Source: Macrostomum lignano (Eukaryota). Taken from it: a stretch of 32,039 nt of DNA. Of this stretch, positions 9,089-23,300 are shown in pieces. A program made the position numbers and the translations under genes. The DNA lies in NCBI GenBank assembly GCA_002269645.1, contig NIVC01004898.1, forward strand, positions 1-32,039, in the 5' to 3' direction. The number at the start of each line of letters is the position of its first letter. The first letter of the stretch is position 1. The notes under the pieces are model-generated. The model did not search any database. It was not told where the DNA came from and was given only the letters and a program-made list of their open reading frames with translations.

Positions 9089-9844
9089 TTAATCCTCATC
9101 GTCCTCTTTCATCAGATCTTTTAAGATTCGATTTTTCCTTTCTAACCTTGGGTTGATATATATATGTTTGTATTGGCTATCATCCCAAATTTTTTTACAC
9201 AAGCTTTTAAATTGTTTTGTATCCAACCCAGGATTAAATCTAGCGTGTATATTTTGTAAATCATAATTATCTAAATCAAACATTACACAACAACTTGCAT
9301 TCTTTTTTATAATCGATTCTAATTCTCTAAAGGACTGTGTTAGATAAAAAGCTCCAATTCCATCTCCTCTACCACTAACAAAAATTTCCTTTTGCAATTC
9401 TTGATCACCGTCATTAATACAATCATCAAAAATAATTAGTGTTTTATCATGTTTTGGAATTTGATCATAGGCTAATCGGGTTGATACTCTAACAGTTGGG
9501 GCTCGTTCGGTGATGTTTTCTGGTTGTTGTGCCATTGTTTTACATAAATCCTCAATGTCATCGAGTGTAAATCGCGGTTCGTCATCATCCTCATATTGCT
9601 CATATGCTCTTAACATTCTAAACAAGACATCTTTTTTTAATTTGTTTTTTAATCCATGTTTAAGAAATTCATAATATTTTATTCTAGGTTTGTTAGTATA
9701 AATTATTAAATTATTATAGTCTAACATTCCATCTGTTGTTAATAAATCGTAAACAAAGTGTGTTTTTCCTTTACCTGATCCTCCGATTACTAAACAAAGA
9801 AAAGGATCATTTGGAAATATCTTATCGTGTTTTGCCTTTACCAT
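9089..9844 (-). CDS. A32-like (FtsK-HerA) DNA packaging ATPase
   Basis: Walker A GGSGKGKT, Walker B LIIFDD, GR...I..FYLTQSF arginine-finger/sensor region. Confidence 0.92.
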   Translation of the reverse strand: MVKAKHDKIFPNDPFLCLVIGGSGKGKTHFVYDLLTTDGMLDYNNLIIYTNKPRIKYYEFLKHGLKNKLKKDVLFRMLRAYEQYEDDDEPRFTLDDIEDLCKTMAQQPENITERAPTVRVSTRLAYDQIPKHDKTLIIFDDCINDGDQELQKEIFVSGRGDGIGAFYLTQSFRELESIIKKNASCCVMFDLDNYDLQNIHARFNPGLDTKQFKSLCKKIWDDSQYKHIYINPRLERKNRILKDLMKEDDED

Positions 9845-9865
9845 TTTTAAAGAAATAATTTAAAT

Positions 9866-9940
9866 AGGCGCGACGGTCGGAGACCTGCGCCGCTTACAGC
9901 GGGGCGACGTGCTTTGCACTGCGACACTAAAGTGGCGCGT
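9866..9940 (-). terminator. Cluster of 3-4 GC-rich mini-hairpins across and just after the MCP stop codon
   Basis: Minus strand: GTGC-AAA-GCAC, CCGCT-GTA-AGCGG, GGTC-TCC-GACC inside GGCGC/GCGCC. The 12-mer GTGCAAAGCACG is identical to part of insert 1. The terminator role is only inferred. Confidence 0.45.
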
Positions 9941-11399
9941 CCCGAACAATCGTGCCATCAGCTTTAGCAATTGACATATATTCCTCTAGAAACAATACGT
10001 GTGCGTCTATTGCCTGATTACCGGTTTTATTAATCTCTAACATATAATTAAGTCCAATATTGGCTACGTTTTCTTTCTGTGCCGTTAGATCATAAACAAC
10101 CACTGGATGAATGTTTAGAAACTCTGTGGGTGTGTACTGAGGGACGGCATACGCTTCATTTTTAGCATAATCTTGATAATATTTTATAAAATCATTAACA
10201 TTATTATTTGCTATATTTAAATTTAGGGGGTCTTTAACCGGATAATATTGATCATCAACCTGCAGGCGGATATTCTGAACATTAAACTCGTTAATAGCTG
10301 CAGCCGCATTGTCTGTTGCGGTGGCTGCTTGTTCTGCTATGGCACCGGATTGAAGCCAATATAAATCCCCATTTGCTCTTTTACTCCTTCTATTTGTTAT
10401 CTTAAACCAAACAAAAATATATCTCACCCGACGTTTTGATGTCAGTATTTGCCACTGGAATGAATCCTGGTTATTATTAATGGTTCGCATAAAATGTCGA
10501 CGATTCAAATAAAATATTTCCTGATCATGCGTTAACTGATTATCGATGTGTTTTAAAAGTGGGGCTGTTACCTCAATAGTTGGTACGACTAATTGAATTG
10601 AATCTATACGAACTGCTATATCGGTTGAAATTGAGGTTCCATAAAGTATCCTAGGCTGATATCCACCAGATATTTGCAACTGTATCCCAAATTTTAATCC
10701 TTTCCATACCCGATTTGGTGAGAAAAACCCAAATAGTGGAAAGATTGAAAAGTCCTGCTCATATGCTGTTGCTGTGGTTAAAACCGCGACTGGGAATTTA
10801 TTCTGACGATCTATAAAACCAGTATTAATATCTTTTGTATTAGTCATAGTGGTTACAACTGGAACTATGTTTGTATTAAGGTAAACAATTAGCGCTGCAG
10901 TATCTGCACCGGCTGCGTTTTGTACATTAGGGAAAACTACTGCTTGCCCGTTACCTTTATCCGGCATCCACCCAACATTATCACCAACTTGTTTTGATAA
11001 ATAAGTATAATTTAAATGTTTCAAAACTCCATTAATCTCTGCGGGGTTTGATGATGTCTCAACCTCAGCACCATTAACAGTTAGTTGAGCTTGGGAAAAA
11101 CATTTATAAAACCAATCATTTTCTATTATTATTCTGGATCGATCTGCGATATCTCCGGCTGCAAGAGCAGTTCCATCATTTCTAGTATACAACCATCTAA
11201 CGCGGAAAAACGCATTTTTCATATCCAATATAGTGTTGGTTGCGCCGATGTCAAAAGTTACCGTTCCAGTAGTAAAGTTATTTGAATTATCACTTGTTGG
11301 TAGGGTATAATTTAAATCTCTTGCTCTGACCTCATTAATATACTGTCGGTGCTTTTTGAAATGAAATTTATCACTCCACATAGTTTTTGTTTCAGCCAT
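9927..11399 (-). CDS. Major capsid protein (double jelly roll, PY-like)
   Basis: 490 aa, beta-rich; FDI, D..N..F.V, FSQA.L.VNG..VE, R.IFV.F, L.VD...YP, F...HP...YDLT patterns; Polinton gene context. Confidence 0.88.
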   Translation of the reverse strand: MAETKTMWSDKFHFKKHRQYINEVRARDLNYTLPTSDNSNNFTTGTVTFDIGATNTILDMKNAFFRVRWLYTRNDGTALAAGDIADRSRIIIENDWFYKCFSQAQLTVNGAEVETSSNPAEINGVLKHLNYTYLSKQVGDNVGWMPDKGNGQAVVFPNVQNAAGADTAALIVYLNTNIVPVVTTMTNTKDINTGFIDRQNKFPVAVLTTATAYEQDFSIFPLFGFFSPNRVWKGLKFGIQLQISGGYQPRILYGTSISTDIAVRIDSIQLVVPTIEVTAPLLKHIDNQLTHDQEIFYLNRRHFMRTINNNQDSFQWQILTSKRRVRYIFVWFKITNRRSKRANGDLYWLQSGAIAEQAATATDNAAAAINEFNVQNIRLQVDDQYYPVKDPLNLNIANNNVNDFIKYYQDYAKNEAYAVPQYTPTEFLNIHPVVVYDLTAQKENVANIGLNYMLEINKTGNQAIDAHVLFLEEYMSIAKADGTIVRDAPL

Positions 11400-11433
11400 T
11401 TTTTTAAGTTAAAAAAGTTTTTTATGTTAAAAA

Positions 11434-12075
11434 ATGAGTCAATTTATGGACGTTGATGGAGAGTTAGCGATTTATAAAGAGAAGCAAAGATATTCTGATT
11501 TTGTTAGAAATTTACAAAAAAGAAAGTTAGGAATACAATTAGCTGGCGAAAGATTTGCTGCTCCTTTTGTTAATCCTATTACTGGGAAAATTAGTGAACT
11601 AGAAAAAACAGATAAAGATCTTCTGGAAAAAATTGCTAAAAATACTGAGCCAAAAGAGGATGAAATTTTGGATGATGAGCCGCCTGCTTATGGTGTTGCT
11701 CAAGCACAATTGAGAGTTATAGAGATTAGGGCTGAAGAGATTAGGGGTGGAGTTGATCGGCAACAATTTCCAAGAGTACCACCTAGTATTGCTGTTACAG
11801 ATTTAGGTAATAATAATTATCGAATTGGTAACGTTGATAAAGATCGAAATGAACTATATACAGAATTGGGTGGAGCATATAATATTATTATGAACCCTAG
11901 GGTAAAATTTAACCCGGATTTATATACTAAGGATGAATTAGTAAGTGCTAAAATTTTTTATAATGAGTTAGGAGGAGCTGTTAAAAATACCAGCTTGTAT
12001 AAATGGATTGTAAATTCTATAAATAACAAACCAGCTGTTGGTGATGGATTTAAAACCCGCGAAAACTTGTTTTAG
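11434..12075 (+). CDS. PZ-like/core-protein candidate (213 aa)
   Basis: N-terminal ...F..PIT..I.EL motif reminiscent of Polinton PZ-type ORFs; divergent from MCP. Assignment is from memory. Confidence 0.45.
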   Translation: MSQFMDVDGELAIYKEKQRYSDFVRNLQKRKLGIQLAGERFAAPFVNPITGKISELEKTDKDLLEKIAKNTEPKEDEILDDEPPAYGVAQAQLRVIEIRAEEIRGGVDRQQFPRVPPSIAVTDLGNNNYRIGNVDKDRNELYTELGGAYNIIMNPRVKFNPDLYTKDELVSAKIFYNELGGAVKNTSLYKWIVNSINNKPAVGDGFKTRENLF

Positions 12076-12133
12076 CTGCTGCGAAAGCTGCTGGACATAC
12101 AGGTGTTTAATTGTTAAATTTATTTTTTATAAA

Positions 12134-12637
12134 ATGGATAATACGATAAAAGATTGTCTTTGTAAACCTATTTATGATAAGGCTGGTTCTGACAGAATAC
12201 TAAATAAGATATTTCAAGATGAATTAATAATTGCAAACCGTATTAAAACAATTCAAATGAGACTTGGATATCTTTATGAATTATTAGCTATTAAACATTT
12301 TGGTTTTGAAAAAGTAAATAAAATTGATTTAATTCATACAGAAAGAAAAGTTGCGTTAGAGTTAAAATCTTCTGATAACACAGATAATTCATCAAGTCGA
12401 TTTAGAAATATTCAAAAGTTATTAGAATTTAAATATGTTAATCCCGAATTTGATTTATATTATATTTGCATTAATAATACTACTAAAAACCCCGTACAAA
12501 AAGTATTTGATAATGGAGTTACCTTGTTAACTGGGGAATTTGCTTTAAATTTTTTATATGGTGATCAATATTTAGAAATTATTAAATTGATAGAAACATG
12601 TTTTTTAAACATTAAAAATGAACCAACTTGTGTTTGA
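12134..12637 (+). CDS. PD-(D/E)xK nuclease resembling the Eco47II restriction endonuclease family (167 aa from the AAAATG at 12134)
   Basis: KTIQMRLGYLYE ... IDL-x6-K-VALELK-SSDNTDNSSS ... KL fits the Eco47II-family pattern KT..N.IG.FHQ ... D......K...E.KN..NT.NSSS as I recall it. Catalytic D and ExK are present. Confidence 0.65.
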   Translation: MDNTIKDCLCKPIYDKAGSDRILNKIFQDELIIANRIKTIQMRLGYLYELLAIKHFGFEKVNKIDLIHTERKVALELKSSDNTDNSSSRFRNIQKLLEFKYVNPEFDLYYICINNTTKNPVQKVFDNGVTLLTGEFALNFLYGDQYLEIIKLIETCFLNIKNEPTCV

Positions 12638-14220
12638 TGGAGGATTGTTAGATGTTCAAAAAGGATTAACAAGCTTACCACCAATCTTTACTACTGGGAG
12701 GTATACAAATGAATTACACATCCCATCTTACAACTTCGCGGGTGGAGCTCGAGCTGTGCCCGAGTGGTAGATGCAAAGCTACTGCTAGTCACTATTAGTG
12801 GCAACACCAGCCGCTCACTCAATCCCCTAAAGCTTCAAGTACCACTTTGTTTTCGAAAGATTACAAAGGAACAGAGGTAACTCCTCTTCCCAACGGTAAC
12901 AAGCTTGAAGATAAATATATGGGCAAGAGTGAATCGAAAACCTAACCTCATATGACTTGAGTATGGTTGAGATGCAACGACTGTACGCTGGTGGGCTTGA
13001 AGGACTTAGTCAATCCTTATGATAGCTTAAGACACAGTCTACTCCTTTGTGAAAGCAAAGGTATAAAGGCCGGGTTGACTCGACTCGATCTCCGATTAAA
13101 TCCTGACAATACTCCAAAATCTGATTCAATTCCAATAAATGGGATTGATTGGTTAGCATACTATCACGACTTAGCATATAGAGATGCTGACAAGAACCCG
13201 CCCGAGGAAGCATTAAGATTAAAACATGAAGCCGATCAAAAAATGATTCAAGGATTAGATAACTTGCAGGGATTATCGGTAGGGCAAAGATTAACTAGGT
13301 GGATGGTTAAAAAGATTTTGCAGTCTAAAGTTAAATTTGGTTTGGGAATTAATTATAATCAACATGGAAATAATTGTGTCGAGTGTTTATTATTAAGTGG
13401 TGGTGGGTTAAGTTCTGATGAGGCAAAGATTCTTCATAAAGAATATCGAAAACCTAAATTTTATAGAAAAATCATGAACTTCAAAAAGAATGAAATTTGG
13501 TATGCTGATTTAATGTCGATGCCGAACGAAAGAGGATATAAATATATCTTAACCATATTAGATGGTTTTACTCGATACGCGTGGGCTGTTCCTTTAAAAT
13601 CCAAAAAGGGAGAGGAGGTTGCTGCTGCTTTTAGAAGTCTTGGAGAAAAAAGCGAAAGATTGTGTGTTGATGAAGGAAAAGAATTTTACAATCCTCATAT
13701 GTATAAATTGTATCATTTTGAAAAAGGAAAAGAAAGGAAAAAAGACGCGAATGGGGAGTATATTAATAAAATTTATTCTATTTATGGAGAGAGTAAAAAC
13801 GCATTAATAGAAAGATTTAATCGAACTTTAGGTAAGAAATTATGGTTTCAGTTTAGTCTTAATGGTAACCAAAAGTGGGTAAAAATATTACCAGACGTAG
13901 TGAAAGATTATAACAATTCATATCATTCAGCTATAAAGATGACTCCTCAACAAGCTTATAACAATCCTGAAAAAGTTAAAGTTACTTTTGGAAAATTTGA
14001 AAAAAATAAAAAGAAATCTTTTAAGGTTGGTGATTCTGTTTATATCTATAAATGGAAAGATAAGTTTGAAAAAGGAAGAAAAGGATATTGGAAGATAAGT
14101 GAGAAATTTACTATCAGTAAAGTTTTAAATACCAATCCTACAACCTATATAATTGCTGATAAGGACGGTGAAGAAATATTGGGTTCTTTTTATGAGAACC
14201 AGATAATGTCTGCGAACTAA
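12618..14220 (+). CDS. PLA2 (parvovirus-type)-RVE integrase fusion, interrupted by a group I intron (exon 1 12618-12743, exon 2 from 13070)
   Basis: Exon 1 ends ELHIPSYNFAG. Exon 2 gives (PG)..TRLDLRL...PINGIDWLAYYHDLAY (PLA2 HD motif), then WYADL, LTILDGFTRYAW, VDEGKEF, IERFNRTL (DDE integrase) and an FKVGD C-terminal domain. One indel near 13073-13077 is needed to keep frame if the intron ends at 13069. Confidence 0.9.
12744..13069 (+). ncRNA. Group I self-splicing intron (326 nt, no internal ORF)
   Basis: P1: exon CGGGU with IGS GCCCG 12758-62 (U.G at the splice site). P2; P2.1. P3: CACCAGC 12805-11 / GCTGGTG 12987-93. P4: TCACTC / GAGTGA. P5a-c. P6: ATC / GAT; P6a. P7: GACTG 12979-83 / CAGTC 13035-39 with bulged C and A-U closing pair. 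J8/7 TAAGACA; P8. P9: CCTTTGT-GAAA-GCAAAGG. Terminal G. Confidence 0.92.
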
Positions 14221-14230
14221 GTTCAAACAG

Positions 14231-14455
14231 TTACTTAAGACAACATGGTAGTAAATTTTTTATTACAAACAAAAACAATATTATTACTATAATTGTTACT
14301 AATATTATTATTGACATTTGTTCAACTGTTATCAAACTTAAATTTTCATTAAGTTCATTAATTGGAACATTTCCGATGTAGGAATAGTTTACCTTCATTT
14401 TTTTATATATATTTTTCACAATAAATGTCGTTTCTGTTATAGAATAATAGTTCAT
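14231..14455 (-). CDS. Small single-TM protein (74 aa)
   Basis: AAAAAATG start; hydrophobic MSIIILVTIIVIILFLFVI. Confidence 0.5.
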   Translation of the reverse strand: MNYYSITETTFIVKNIYKKMKVNYSYIGNVPINELNENLSLITVEQMSIIILVTIIVIILFLFVIKNLLPCCLK

Positions 14456-14471
14456 TTTTTAAATATTTTTT

Positions 14472-14786
14472 TCACATAAAAATTTCACTTTCATTCTCTG
14501 AATCACTGGTTTCATATGAACTATTTGTTGATTCGGAATCTGTTGATCTAACCTCCCAATCATCCGAATTTAAATAATCTCCAAGTTGAAATATTAACTC
14601 ACCCTCTTGTTCTAAATCATACATCTCATCTAGCTCTAATTGATAAAGTTTTAGGTCGTGCTTGTCGTCATATTTTAAATAAACTTCATCAATTATTCCA
14701 TTCAAAATATGTTGTTTTATTATCTCTGCATTTTTAGCAACAGTCTCAAAAGTATCACTAACAGAAAAGGTGTAAACTCGGGTCAT
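14472..14786 (-). CDS. Acidic hypothetical protein (104 aa)
   Basis: AAAAATG start; D/E/S-rich tail. Confidence 0.55.
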   Translation of the reverse strand: MTRVYTFSVSDTFETVAKNAEIIKQHILNGIIDEVYLKYDDKHDLKLYQLELDEMYDLEQEGELIFQLGDYLNSDDWEVRSTDSESTNSSYETSDSENESEIFM

Positions 14787-14843
14787 TTTTAGTAACAGAA
14801 AAAGACCCTTCGCGCCTGCGGCGCGGGCAAGGGGTTATAGAGT

Positions 14844-15110
14844 AGTAGTATAGAAAAAGACGCTTCTAGATCAGACCTTATTTTAATTACCGTTTTTAAG
14901 GTCTTAAGAGGGGGGACGCGAGGGGAGTATTGGGGAGTGTTTGGAAGTGTTGGGATTGATTTTTATTGTTAGGGGTGATTATGGGTGATTAGATGTATTA
15001 ATGGTGATTAGATGTGTTTTTTTATTTACCCCCCGTGTCCCCCCTCTAGACCCTTAAAACGGTAATTAAAAAAGTGCTCTGGGTCTAGAAGCGTCTTTTT
15101 CTATACTACT
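14844..15110. repeat. Terminal fold-back: ~90-bp inverted repeat (27 bp perfect) ending at the Polinton terminus
   Basis: AGTAGTATAGAAAAAGACGCTTCTAGA (14844-70) is the exact reverse complement of 15084-15110. Imperfect pairing continues to ~14934/15029 around a G/T-rich spacer. Confidence 0.9.
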
Positions 15111-15536: not shown

Positions 15537-16527
15537 CCTTGACATCTCAGCAATTCCCCCCGTGAGCATCGTGAGCATTGGCATCTCAGCAATTCCCCCC
15601 GTGAGCATTGGCATCTCAGCAATTCCCCCCGTGAGCCTGGCATCTCAGCAATTTCCCCCGTGAGCATTGACATCTCAGCAATTCCCCTCGTGAGCCTGGC
15701 ATCTCAGCAATTCCCCTCGTGAGCCTGGCATCTCAGAAATCCCCCCCGTGAGCCTGGCATCTCAGCAATTTCCCCCGTGAGCATTGACATCTCAGCAATT
15801 CCCCTCGTGAGCCTGGCATCTCAGCAATTCCCCTCGTGAGCCTGGCATCTCAGAAATTCCCCTCGTGAGCCTGGCATCTCAGCAATTCCCCCCGTGAGCC
15901 TGGCATCTCAGCAATTTCCCCCGTGAGCATTGACATCTCAGCAATTCCCCTCGTGAGCCTGGCATCTCAGAAATTCCCCTCGTGAGCCTGGCATCTCAGC
16001 AATTCCACTCGTGAGCCTGGCATCTCAGCAATTCCCCCCGTGAGCCTGGCATCTCAGCAATTCCCCTCGTGAGCCTGGCATCTCAGCAATTCCCCTCGTG
16101 AGCCTGGCATCTCAGAAATTCCCCTCGTGAGCCTGGCATCTCAGCAATTCCCCTCGTGAGCCTGGCATCTCAGCAATTCCCCTCGTGAGCCTGGCATCTC
16201 AGCAATTCCCCTCGTGAGCCTGGCATCTCAGCAATTCCCCTCGTGAGCCTGGCATCTCAGCAATTCCCCTCGTGAGCCTGGCATCTCAGCAATTCCCCCG
16301 TGAGCATTGACATCTCAGCAATTCCCCCGTGAGCACTGGCATCTCAGCAATTCCCCCCGTGAGCATTGGCATCTCAGCAATTCCCCCCGTGAGCATTGAC
16401 ATCTCAGAAATTCCCCCGTGAGCATTGACATCTCAGCAATTCCCCCCGTGAGCATTGACATCTCAGCAATTCCCCCGTGAGCACTGGCATCTCAGCAATT
16501 CCCCCCGTGAGCATTGGCATCTCAGCA
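15537..16527. repeat. Minisatellite, ~28-30 bp unit GTGAGCCTGGCATCTCAGCAATTCCCCTC
   Basis: More than 30 visible tandem copies. Confidence 0.95.
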
Positions 16528-16549
16528 AGTCAAGATCGGCGACGAGTGA

Positions 16550-20302: not shown

Positions 20303-23300
20303 ATGTATGCAGCCACTAGTCAGCTACAGCAAAGGGCCAATGAGGTTCGGGCTAACAGGGTGAATTGGCAATCATATTTGCAGTAAGTGAATTTCTATGA
20401 CTTTGTTTTTTGTATGGTTTATTAATTCTCTTTTAACATATTGGGAGCAAGAAAGTTTTAATTATATAGGAGTAATTGCAATAGGGACTCATCTTATTAG
20501 TAGTTTAGTTGATATTTAGACATTTTTTTATTAATGAAAAAGACAATGAGATGTAGATCTAAGGTAGAGAGAGATAAAGGGTAAATTAATCAGATTCAGT
20601 TAGATGAAGGGAGAGTCAATGAGATGCAGGGAGAGTCAATGAGATGCAGGGAGAGTCAATGAGATGCAGGGAGAGTCAATGAGATGCAAGGAGAGTCAAT
20701 GAGATGCAGGGAGAGTCAATGAGATTCAGGGAGAGTCAATGAGATGCAAGGAGAGTCAATGAGATGCAGGGAGAGTCAATGAGATGCAAGGAGAGTCAAT
20801 GAGATGCAGGGAGAGTCAATGAGATGCAGGGAGAGTCAATGAGATGCAGGGAGAGTCAATGAGATGCAGGGAGAGTCAATGAGATGCAGGGAGAGTCAAT
20901 GAGATGCAAGGAGAGTCAATGAGATGCAAGGAGAGTCAATGAGATGCAGGGAGAGTCAATGAGATGCAAAGAGAGTCAATGAGATGCAAAGAGAGTCAAT
21001 GAGATGCAGGGAGAGTCAATGAGATGCAGGGAGAGTCAATGAGATGCAAGGAGAGTCAATGAGATGCAGGGAGAGTCAATGAGATGCAGGGAGAGTCAAT
21101 GAGATGCAGGGAGAGTCAATGAGATGCAGGGAGAGTCAATGAGATGCAGGGAGTGAATGAGATGCAGGGAGAGTCAATGAGATGCAGGGAGAGTCAATGA
21201 GATGCAAGGAGAGTCAATGAGATGCAAGGAGAGTCAATGAGATGCAGGGAGAGTCAATGAGATGCAAGGAGAGTCAATGAGATGCAGGGAGAGTCAATGA
21301 GATGCAGGGAGAGTCAATGAGATGCAAGGAGAGTCAATGAGATGCAGGGAGAGTCAATGAGATGCAGGGAGAGTCAATGAGATGCAGGGAGAGTCAATGA
21401 GATGCAGGGAGAGTCAATGAGATGCAAGGAGAGTCAATGAGATGCAAGGAGAGTCAATGAGATGCAAGGAGAGTCAATGAGATGCAAGGAGAGTCAATGA
21501 GATGCAGGGAGAGTCAATGAGATGCAGGGAGAGTCAATGAGATGCAAGGAGAGTCAATGAGATGCAGGGAGAGTCAATGAGATGCAGGGAGAGTCAATGA
21601 GATGCAGGGAGAGTCAATGAGATGCAGGGAGAGTCAATGAGATGCAAGGAGAGTCAATGAGATGCAGGGAGAGTCAATGAGATGCAGGCAGAGTCAATGA
21701 GATGCAGGGAGAGTCAATGAGATGCAGGGAGAGTCAATGAGATGCAAGGAGAGTCAATGAGATGCAGGGAGAGTCAATGAGATGCAGGGAGACACAGCCA
21801 GAGTAACTCAACCCCACATGCGCAGAGGCCAAATGATAGACCAGGCTGACTATGACTTCATCGTGAAGCTGGAGTCCCGGGCCAGTCAACCGGAGCAGCG
21901 CAAGGCTCTGATAGACGAGAATTCCAGTCAGTTTGTTCGAACGATACTCGCCCTGCTGGCTAGAATCTCCAAGGAGCAGACTGTGCAGTACATCCTAACT
22001 CTGCTCGATGACCTGCTGCAGGAGGAAAAGCAACGCGTCGAGCTGTTCAAAGCTTATTCCCAGCGACGCAGAGAGAGCGTATGGGCGCCGTTCTTTGGTA
22101 TGCTGCACAGGCAGGATGGCTTCATTGTCAATCAGGCATCGAGAATCATCGCCAAAATTGCCTGCTGGGGTAACCAGCTGATGGAGCACACTGAGCTGCT
22201 GCATTACCTGTCCTGGCTCAGGGAGCAGCTGCGACTGCCTGTAGGATTTTTAATTGTCTTCTCCGATGCTGTGTCTTCCCTATGATCCCAGTGTCTTCCT
22301 TATGATCCCAGAGTCTTCCTTATGATCCCAGTGTCTTCCTTATGATCCCAGTGTCTTCCTTATGATCCCAGAGTCTTCCTGGTGATCCCAGTGTCTTCCT
22401 TATGATCCCAGTGTCTTCCTTATGATCCCAGTGTCTTCCTTATGAACCCAGTGTCTTCCTTATGATCCCAGTGTCTTCCTTATGATCCCAGAGTCTTCCT
22501 TATGATCCCAGTGTCTTCCTTATGATCCCAGTGTCTTCCTTATGATCCCAGTGTCTTCCTTATGATCCCAGAGTCTTCCTGGTGATCCCAGTGTCTTCCT
22601 TATGATCCCAGTGTCTTCCTTATGATCCCAGTGTCTTCCTTATGAACCCAGTGTCTTCCTTATGATCCCAGTGTCTTCCTTATGATCCCAGAGTCTTCTT
22701 ATGATCCCAGTGTCTTCCTTATGATCCCAGTGTCTTCCTTATGATCCCAATGTTCCCTGTGATCTCAGTGTCTTCCTTATGATCCCAGAGTCTTCCTTAT
22801 GATCCCAGTGTCTTCCTTATGATCCCAGTGTCTTCTTATGATCCCAGTGTCTTCCTTATGATCCCAGTGTCTTCCTTATGATCCCAGTGTCTTCCTTATG
22901 ATCCCAGTGTCTTCCTTAAGATCAGTGTCTTCCTTATGATCCCAGTGTCTTCCTTATGATCCCAGAGTCTTCCCTATGATCCCAGTGTCTTCCTTATGAT
23001 CCCAGTCTTCCCACGATCCCGGTGTCTTCCCTATGATCCCAGTGTCTTCCCTATGATCCCAGTCTTCCCCACGATCCCGGTGTCTTCCCCATGATCCCAG
23101 AGTCTTCCCCGTGATCCCAGTGTCTTTCACACGAGCATCATGAAGCCCATATGCAATCCATATTATTCCAATGTCTCCCTGGCCTCACAGTGCTCTCTCT
23201 TGCTAACAACACCTTGCCGCTTTGAAATCCCCTCCGTAGTCGAACGAGTACATCCAAACAGTGGCCCGCTGCCTGCAAATGATGCTCAGAGTTGGGCCCT

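Follow-up and report, generated by a model that had tools for sequence, protein, structure and literature searches.

A group I intron family linked to a nuclease in the PLA2X-integrase gene of a Polinton integrated in an animal genome

In the accessible text of two surveys, group I introns of nuclear genomes occur exclusively in rRNA genes of microbial eukaryotes (PMC3679873, PMC8395846), and the available part of a 2025 database gives animal group I introns only for placozoans, corals and sponges, mostly in mitochondria (PMC11835236). Regarding viruses, the initial annotation of the present locus considered group I introns as limited to phages and giant viruses; this view does not hold, since introns matching the covariance model RF00028 are described, in the accessible part of the source, in Polinton-like viruses of Rhodomonas lacustris, Paulinella micropora and Desmodesmus armatus (PMC12220804). 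Just as the intron presented here, these are ORF-less (309-376 bp) and interrupt protein genes of integrated elements, in their case in a few protist groups and within a short gene without annotation that lies upstream of the capsid gene (PMC12220804, same portion).

In the literature searched, no group I intron is reported from an animal Polinton, nor any combination of group I intron, endogenous viral element and animal genome; an animal Polinton intron is absent from the accessible parts of 10.1101/2023.08.22.554363, PMC11296320, PMC8502044, 10.64898/2026.10.13.758929, PMC6125680, PMC11835236 and PMC3984707, and supplements (PMC12220804 S11-S12, the PMC11835236 database) could list some. 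Within the bounds of these sources, group I introns of protist Polinton-like viruses are already known (PMC12220804) and a nuclease-linked group I intron family is new to animal nuclear DNA.

The intron, its host gene and the carrying element

The window, i.e. the whole stretch of 32,039 nucleotides that was analysed, begins within a Polinton/adintovirus-like element (1-15110, unstranded) whose left end lies beyond the contig start. The hallmarks of such elements are present, namely pPolB, an rve integrase, a packaging ATPase and PLA2X (integrase, ATPase and PLA2 by Pfam). The pPolB gene (349-3339) is broken into four frame-shifted pieces recognised by homologues, some of them with PF03175; two of the homologues, P0048 and P0072, are annotated with intein and LAGLIDADG domains. 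An A32-like ATPase (9089-9844) is identified by Pfam, while the putative capsid genes (8288-9073 and 9927-11399) and the putative protease (7668-8105) are proposed from position, size, order and motif only, the Pfam search of the window ORFs giving no relevant library match for a double jelly-roll capsid, a penton or a cysteine protease. On the minus strand, 5612-7657 encodes a 681-aa protein with about nine 19-residue repeats (6949-7632) and an F5/8 type C domain, which on these sequence features is probably a fibre or receptor-binding protein. The right terminus (14841-15110, unstranded) is an AGTAGT-type end with internal inverted arms (27 nt perfect plus 43 nt at 79%), because of which the element ends can each form a hairpin.

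The interrupted gene starts with an exon 1 of 42 codons (12618-12743, + strand) that ends in the first Gly of the PLA2 calcium loop, and reading through from it meets a stop at 12768-12770; the open frame of exon 2 (13078-14220, + strand) encodes the remaining PLA2X fused to an rve integrase. Two intronless alleles were retrieved from the genome with an uninterrupted-junction pattern that other codon choices would escape (reversed control, 0), and both are single 422-codon frames in which PLA2X is fused to the integrase. They fix the 5' splice site after T12743 and place the insertion between the Gly and the Pro of the calcium loop, Gly-Pro-Gly-Thr being conserved in homologues. The initial annotation had seen here a Polinton PLA2 gene: the PLA2 domain stands, and the intronless alleles together with Pfam make the gene a PLA2X-integrase fusion instead of a separate PLA2 gene. 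Spliceosomal removal was considered and rejected, as no GT-AG pair gives the frame on inspection by eye. Between PLA2X and the integrase, the window reads Leu-Ser-Gly-Gly-Gly at 13378-13400; because this stretch fits the adenovirus-type protease site consensus, the fusion may be a polyprotein. Just past the start codon, exon 1 bears GC-rich, partly palindromic inserts of about 30 nt in many copies (L002, L019, L023, L039).

Ninety loci at this site were fetched, of which 76 lie on distinct contigs once 14 repeats were dropped: 24 carry the intron type of the window (type A), 3 a decayed type B and 49 a type C; a further type D contains a nuclease ORF. The type A intron of the window, itself ORF-less, extends over 12744-13069 (+ strand), with a fixed 5' end and a 3' end placed by P9.0 and by homology to the sister types. 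All named helices (P1, P2, P2.1, P3, P4, P5, P5abc, P6-P6b, P7, P8, P9.0 and P9) pair where the initial annotation had put them, and with helices defined by hand, P1 to P9 pair without mismatch using standard pairs. Along the + strand, P1 (12739-12762) joins the last five exon bases to the internal guide (12739-43/12758-62) with the U.G at the splice site (T12743.G12758); P2 and P2.1 (12764-12802) are near-identical to those of type C; the core from P3 to P8 (12805-13040) comprises the P3-P7 pseudoknot (P3, 12805-11/12987-93) with P4-P6 and P8, its P4, P6 and P7 being unlike those of the IC1-like core of types C and D. The P5abc domain (12833-12910) has a GAAA-capped P5b and an A-rich bulge; P7 shows the pair A12977-U13040, the bulged C12978 and the guanosine-site pair G12979-C13039. 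Finally, the 3' splice region (13041-13077) holds P9.0 (13042-43/13067-68) and P9 with its GAAA loop, G13069 being out of frame and 13068, 13074 and 13077 being in-frame G candidates.

The covariance-model check suggested by the initial annotation gave a full-length RF00028 match at 12760-13061 (E 1.6e-9) whose 42.9 bits lie under the gathering score of 50, so that at that score no match is returned for the window intron. Folding is better than in any of 100 shuffles (z = -2.87). Across eight type A and two type B variants, 96% of cells are paired and 12 of 97 pairs are changed on both sides; helices slid along the alignment pair at 33-46%, and the relatedness of the variants inflates the shuffle control. 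P5abc variants with compensatory changes are common to several types, and exon base -4 covaries with its guide partner (G-C in type A, A-U in type C), G at this base being found in 24/24 type A and 0/48 other copies. The G-binding site covariation claimed at first also holds, the window having A-U with a bulged C where types C and D have G-C with a bulged A; covariation of the P7 bulge is described in the accessible text of PMC8395846 (section 10). The window intron is a real group I intron. That it interrupts an mRNA gene of a Polinton integrated in an animal genome is supported, and the context that had escaped the initial annotation is that there are several cores, omega-A variants and a nuclease lying within the intron in a sister family and standing free in the window.

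Sister introns, the nuclease and GGNCC avoidance

The type A set is complete at 24 copies (25/25 candidates by DNA similarity, one copy being split by an insertion), and the 49 type C loci are a sample of a larger set of 116 candidates. Between types A and C, 39-40 of 42 bases are identical in P2-P2.1 and 66-67 of 78 in P5abc, against about half of the bases in the core arms. An IC1-like periphery (P5abc with A-rich bulge, P2/P2.1) is found in all types; the IC1-like core motifs P, Q, R and S are present in types C and D and in a virophage intron and absent in the window's type, types A and B having another core with an A-U pair and a bulged C in P7. On sequence, type A can be read as a mosaic of the shared periphery and a different core, possibly of IE type, as we take the A-U pair with bulged C at the G-site to resemble subgroup IE. 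Type B copies (L025-L027) lack exon 1 and the 5' end and have a broken P7; by these features they are putative relics of a more distant family sharing the window's core type. Additional insertions occur, namely a foreign stretch of about 830 bp, richer in GC, within P8 of a single type A copy (L024, ~1768-2592) and optional 30-nt hairpins in or after P5abc (L030, L048, L072, L078, L093, L098), one hairpin form being common to types C and D with a similar one in the virophage intron.

Type C, followed over 27 haplotypes, pairs in 99.5% of cells with 8/81 pairs doubly changed and an invariant P7; one copy passes RF00028 at 50.7 bits, and six other intron loci in the same scan gave no match. Its terminal base is A in 37/49 and G in 12/49 loci, the position of the 3' end following from the frame, from P9.0 and from the terminal G of type D at the same place; with either base in type C, as in type D, the frame of the interrupted gene would be restored. 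An in-frame exon extension instead of omega-A was rejected for type C, as the junction falls before Pro by P9.0 and P10 as well as in type D and the intronless alleles. In A-ending copies, pN/pS is 0.06 over the first ten codons after Thr (12 haplotypes), compared with family-wide values of about 0.33 in exon 1 and 0.06-0.13 in exon 2; being family-wide and subject to recombination, this low pN/pS does not prove type A splicing.

Movement between element backgrounds is observed. On the tree of distal exon 2 (59 rows after removal of two short loci and of identical rows), 11 changes are required for type A, no fewer than 8 of them forced; its fixed markers are confined to the stretch from exon 1 -4 through the first 15 bases past the Thr codon, and its 3' half differs by 1.2% vs 6.4% in exon 2. 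The intron cassette is exchanged between backgrounds, and because all intron labels scatter on the tree, plain recombination explains this mobility as well as homing does.

Just upstream of the intron, the window carries a free-standing PD-(D/E)XK nuclease gene (12134-12637, + strand, 167 aa), Eco47II-like by Pfam and fold. Its match to the Pfam family RE_Eco47II (E 4e-5) is below the cut-off; the model (pLDDT 89) resembles best EcoO109I (TM 0.63), AvaII and DdmD, AvaII being within the top 5, at identities of 14-18%, and such fold similarity does not by itself fix the recognition sequence. EcoO109I cuts RGGNCCY and Eco47II GGNCC; AvaII cuts GGWCC, according to a published abstract. The free-standing gene lies upstream of 7/24 type A, 9/49 type C, 0/3 type B and 0/2 intronless loci, i.e. 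no link with intron type was found among these loci, and another gene occupies the slot in the copies checked. The slot gene of other copies has no credible Pfam match; that of L002 (792-1394, 200 aa) contains an Asp-His motif along with two Cys pairs, looks HNH-like by eye and is perhaps a rival nuclease.

In family D, the same nuclease resides inside the intron. The genome scan with RF00028 scored 28 of 29,353 candidates, all 28 being above the cut-off (72.7-91 bits) and of family-D type, and on the 5' side of each of the 28 there is a nuclease match, either adjacent or overlapping. The one type D copy read through runs from exon 1 over P1, P2, the nuclease ORF and the core to a terminal G in 880 nt at the same site. 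The nuclease ATG lies 79 bases into the intron, in a P2.1 loop closed by an 11-bp stem, and the frame continues into the intron core; the product is 66% identical to that of the window's free-standing gene over 114 residues. One nuclease gene is thus found in two states, in the P2.1 loop in family D and 100 bp upstream of the intron in the window, and because six of nine database homologues carry a tail that is translated intron core, the composite nuclease-intron exists elsewhere as well. The description of the intron as ORF-less consequently suits this copy and does not extend to the family. No cognate methyltransferase was found among the scanned window ORFs, the element's left end lying beyond the contig.

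The 15,110 bp of the element contain no GGNCC, compared with 16.4 expected from dinucleotide shuffles (0/200 as low) and 5.8 from a third-order expectation, which makes it the second most depleted of 256 gapped words. At the protein level, Gly-Pro is absent from the element's 4,395 aa against 7.3 expected, Pro-Gly occurring five times; as the pair (GGN CCN) always contains GGNCC, no silent change can remove the site. Among type A and C loci, 72/73 lack GGNCC and the sites of the exception are all within its foreign insertion, while the intronless alleles have exactly one each in 3 kb, i.e. the insertion site; these loci being near-copies of one region, the independent evidence is that of a single 15-kb element. 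The word is not depleted in host DNA (23 vs 19.6), in 80 metagenome PLA2 loci (260 vs 214) or in the virophage (7 vs 8). Over positions 1-15110, the strongest depletion among gapped words is that of CANTG (20 vs 48 expected), CCNGG is also low and GCNGC is enriched; with CANTG avoided even more than GGNCC, and CCNGG to some extent, the avoidance of words must have further causes.

Outside the genome, a 328-nt insert occurs at the same junction in IMGVR_UViG_3300032299_000973, one of five IMG/VR PLA2 relatives, with P1, P2.1, P5abc, P7, P9.0 and terminal G recognisable when it is aligned and its helices are paired by eye; a Sputnik-type capsid (E 4e-53) is encoded on this contig, and RF00028 gave no match to this intron at E 0.05. 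Inserts at the same codon, which the initial annotation had proposed to look for, thus exist as sister introns in the genome and in one virophage contig; its suggested protist or algal virus link gains this same-site relative in a Sputnik-type virophage contig, the origin itself staying a hint. Among the best 80 of 345 metagenome PLA2 relatives, a ranking that favours unbroken genes, no intron was seen (73 with an unbroken motif, 7 unread by the pattern, the core motif in 0/80). In viral contigs, a single query revealed no relative, the type A core pattern none either, and 195 pattern matches contained no nuclease relative; with a looser 3'-end pattern, 13 stretches were recovered, i.e. the virophage intron, an unrelated weak RF00028 match and 11 by chance. 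The weak match (L179, 625-1233; 32.5 bits) belongs to an unrelated viral contig, where it precedes a capsid-like frame.

The reading we favour, with a probability of about 0.6 for the explanation as a whole, is a mobile group I intron family at Gly|Pro combining nuclease-driven homing or competition, GGNCC immunity and self-splicing. The nuclease would cut GGNCC or a site containing it; the element would have purged every GGNCC, and the intron would protect the Gly-Pro site that cannot be silently lost. Cutting of intronless or foreign elements would drive homing, in the classical way in D and collaboratively in A and C, and would hold the intron near fixation. The RNA would remove itself by guanosine-initiated two-step splicing, because of which the integrase fusion protein would depend on splicing. 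As a five-base cutter would shred host chromosomes, confinement or lytic-phase-only expression is implied, and one may speculate, by analogy with chloroviruses, that the nuclease is confined or used in a lytic phase.

A wider reading, put forward tentatively and at somewhat less than even odds, joins these parts: a short-site, restriction-type nuclease of an animal DNA virus family would work without a methylase, its site being purged genome-wide and a self-splicing intron giving immunity to the one site fixed by function; the nuclease would serve homing and attack on competitors or host DNA and would move in and out of the intron, cores of two subgroups would swap within a shared periphery, most copies would splice with a terminal A, and all this would work on animal mRNA.

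Alternative readings and the 3' end of type A

Introns of this kind are typical of protists, fungi and their viruses, and the contig begins within the element, which would suit contamination by a protist virus or protist DNA, or an insert created by assembly; the probability left to this is nearly nil. The element is joined after 15110, its terminus being read in the window, to host DNA with an animal-like V-ATPase subunit H exon on the same contig (21833-22240, + strand). Against seven solved chains this exon reaches 118-123 bits, against two more it reaches 40-45; the seven best are presumably mammalian and the next a plant chain, and the scores therefore designate an animal as host. Copies are located in contigs up to 1.5 Mb, in two other contigs the terminus occurs in both orientations, some 18 kb apart, with a type A intron in between, contigs of independent sequencing runs span the junctions and one of them the whole intron, and three contigs of one run have mutually different sequence beyond 15110. 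Integration of the element in an animal host, as the initial annotation had it from the start, is confirmed; contamination was among the findings that it said would refute its claim. The host DNA also shows tandem arrays beside V-ATPase H exons (15550-16530, 20610-21790 and 22280-23000, with units of about 29, 20 and 20 nt). A less improbable, still unlikely reading takes the introns for ordinary passengers inherited from ancestral viruses of protists, regards the nuclease as cargo that is decayed or unrelated, and gives GGNCC avoidance another cause, e.g. the restriction enzyme of a helper virus or of an earlier host, or composition. Group I introns do occur in protist Polinton-like viruses (in the accessible text of PMC12220804), the virophage has a same-site intron without GGNCC avoidance, a different gene fills the nuclease slot in other copies, and the Gly-Pro of a conserved loop is a natural intron site regardless of any nuclease. 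Against this, many nuclease copies have unbroken frames in both states, the avoidance is complete, extends to the protein level and spares the insertion site alone, and the fold neighbours of the nuclease cut such sites.

More weight has to be given to doubts on the productivity of type A itself. Splicing at G13069 puts the gene 2 nt out of frame in 24/24 copies: the frame reads Pro-Gly-stop, and the conserved PLA2 frame restarts at 13078. Compared with the intronless alleles, the two extra bases are 13076-13077, and as they recur in all 24 copies, an assembly error was ruled out. The terminal G proposed by the initial annotation thus keeps its P9.0 pairing and loses the reading frame. P10 is equal for exon starts 13070 and 13075 (five Watson-Crick and two G.U pairs each, shuffle p ~0.02) and poor, in strict register, for 13069 and 13078; the register of 13075 allows three further pairs, the guide loop of type A is palindromic, and P10 energies do not separate the 3'-site candidates. 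No intron-skipping joint was found in the contigs of four runs (three guessed to be RNA and one unknown, out of 22 runs, none recorded as RNA), which is no evidence on splicing because contigs drop rare forms and the RNA status is unproven. We put at even odds that type A uses an in-frame shifted 3' site, most likely 13074, and a little below this that it is a non-productive allele carried by trans-complementation, little being left for any other explanation of its 3' end. In the rival account built on the latter, which is credible while falling short of an even chance, splicing at G13069 would lead to the stop, or would not occur, other copies would supply PLA2X-integrase in trans, and recombination or homing would spread the cassette. 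P9.0 and homology with types B, C and D and the virophage intron do place the 3' end at the 13069 position, every in-frame alternative alters the Gly-Pro-Gly-Thr spacing of the calcium loop, the low diversity of the 3' half fits a recent sweep, and the pPolB of the window copy is broken; yet core, P1 and P9 are intact in 24/24 type A copies, 18/24 keep a downstream frame of at least 380 codons, with the 13074 register, the silent exon-2 positions at which type A is fixed are complementary to the type's own guide loop, and many diverged backgrounds carry type A. It is very improbable that, after splicing at 13069, ribosomes make a programmed -1 shift at the Gly codon preceding the stop, restoring the frame and metering the integrase fusion: this would retain the Gly-x-Gly loop and agree with two extra bases invariant in 24/24 copies, but a classical slippery heptamer is absent, no shift is required in types C and D or in the intronless alleles, and the unshifted product has merely 44 residues. 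Even with a non-productive type A, the favoured account of a mobile, nuclease-linked intron family may hold at the level of the family.

Likeness to and departure from known systems

A conserved intron family of this kind makes testable group I splicing on animal mRNA, as well as where Polintons are transcribed and whether a lytic phase exists. Both nuclease states in one genome offer a test of how nucleases enter introns, and the A and G alleles side by side a test of omega-A tolerance, while the nuclease may be a new restriction-type enzyme adapted to eukaryotes.

Regarding enzymes, I-Ssp6803I is a known intron-encoded PD-(D/E)XK homing nuclease, and chlorovirus restriction enzymes degrade host DNA. 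With these and with the type II enzymes Eco47II, AvaII and EcoO109I, the window's element has in common the PD-(D/E)XK fold and site avoidance in the carrier genome; no methyltransferase is in view in the element, protection being apparently ensured by site loss and intron. In the phage model of collaborative homing, as far as the accessible part of the source describes it, a nuclease free-standing beside an ORF-less intron and the same nuclease borne by the intron represent two stages (PMC3984707). Both are found here, in one animal genome, and the nuclease resembles a short-site type II restriction enzyme rather than a long-site homing enzyme.

Regarding the ribozyme, nuclear IC1 and IE rDNA introns (e.g. 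Tetrahymena Tth.L1925 and Didymium GIR2) have the same P1-P9 core and covarying P7 bulge, and those of IC1-like type share in addition P2/P2.1, P5abc with its A-rich bulge and the GAAA loop, in the accessible text of PMC3679873 and PMC8395846; there, the rDNA introns are associated with His-Cys nucleases, whereas the window's intron interrupts an mRNA gene carried by a mobile element of an animal genome. Splicing retained with omega-A, described in the available passages for Diderma L2066 (PMC3679873, section 9) and the hexacoral mitochondrial ND5-717 (PMC6545197), is a precedent for the 37 A-ending type C copies; unlike in these two cases, as far as those passages go, A and G endings segregate here within one family and one genome.

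As for the element, adintoviruses and Polintons with PLA2X share with it pPolB, rve integrase, packaging ATPase, PLA2X and, apparently, terminal repeats (PMC8502044, accessible part), but here an intron divides PLA2X, which forms one gene with the integrase; the only mention of introns in that part of PMC8502044 refers to group II maturases. Compared with the protist Polinton-like viruses, the family of the window is set apart by its animal host, the PLA2X-integrase gene, the nuclease link, the several cores and omega-A.
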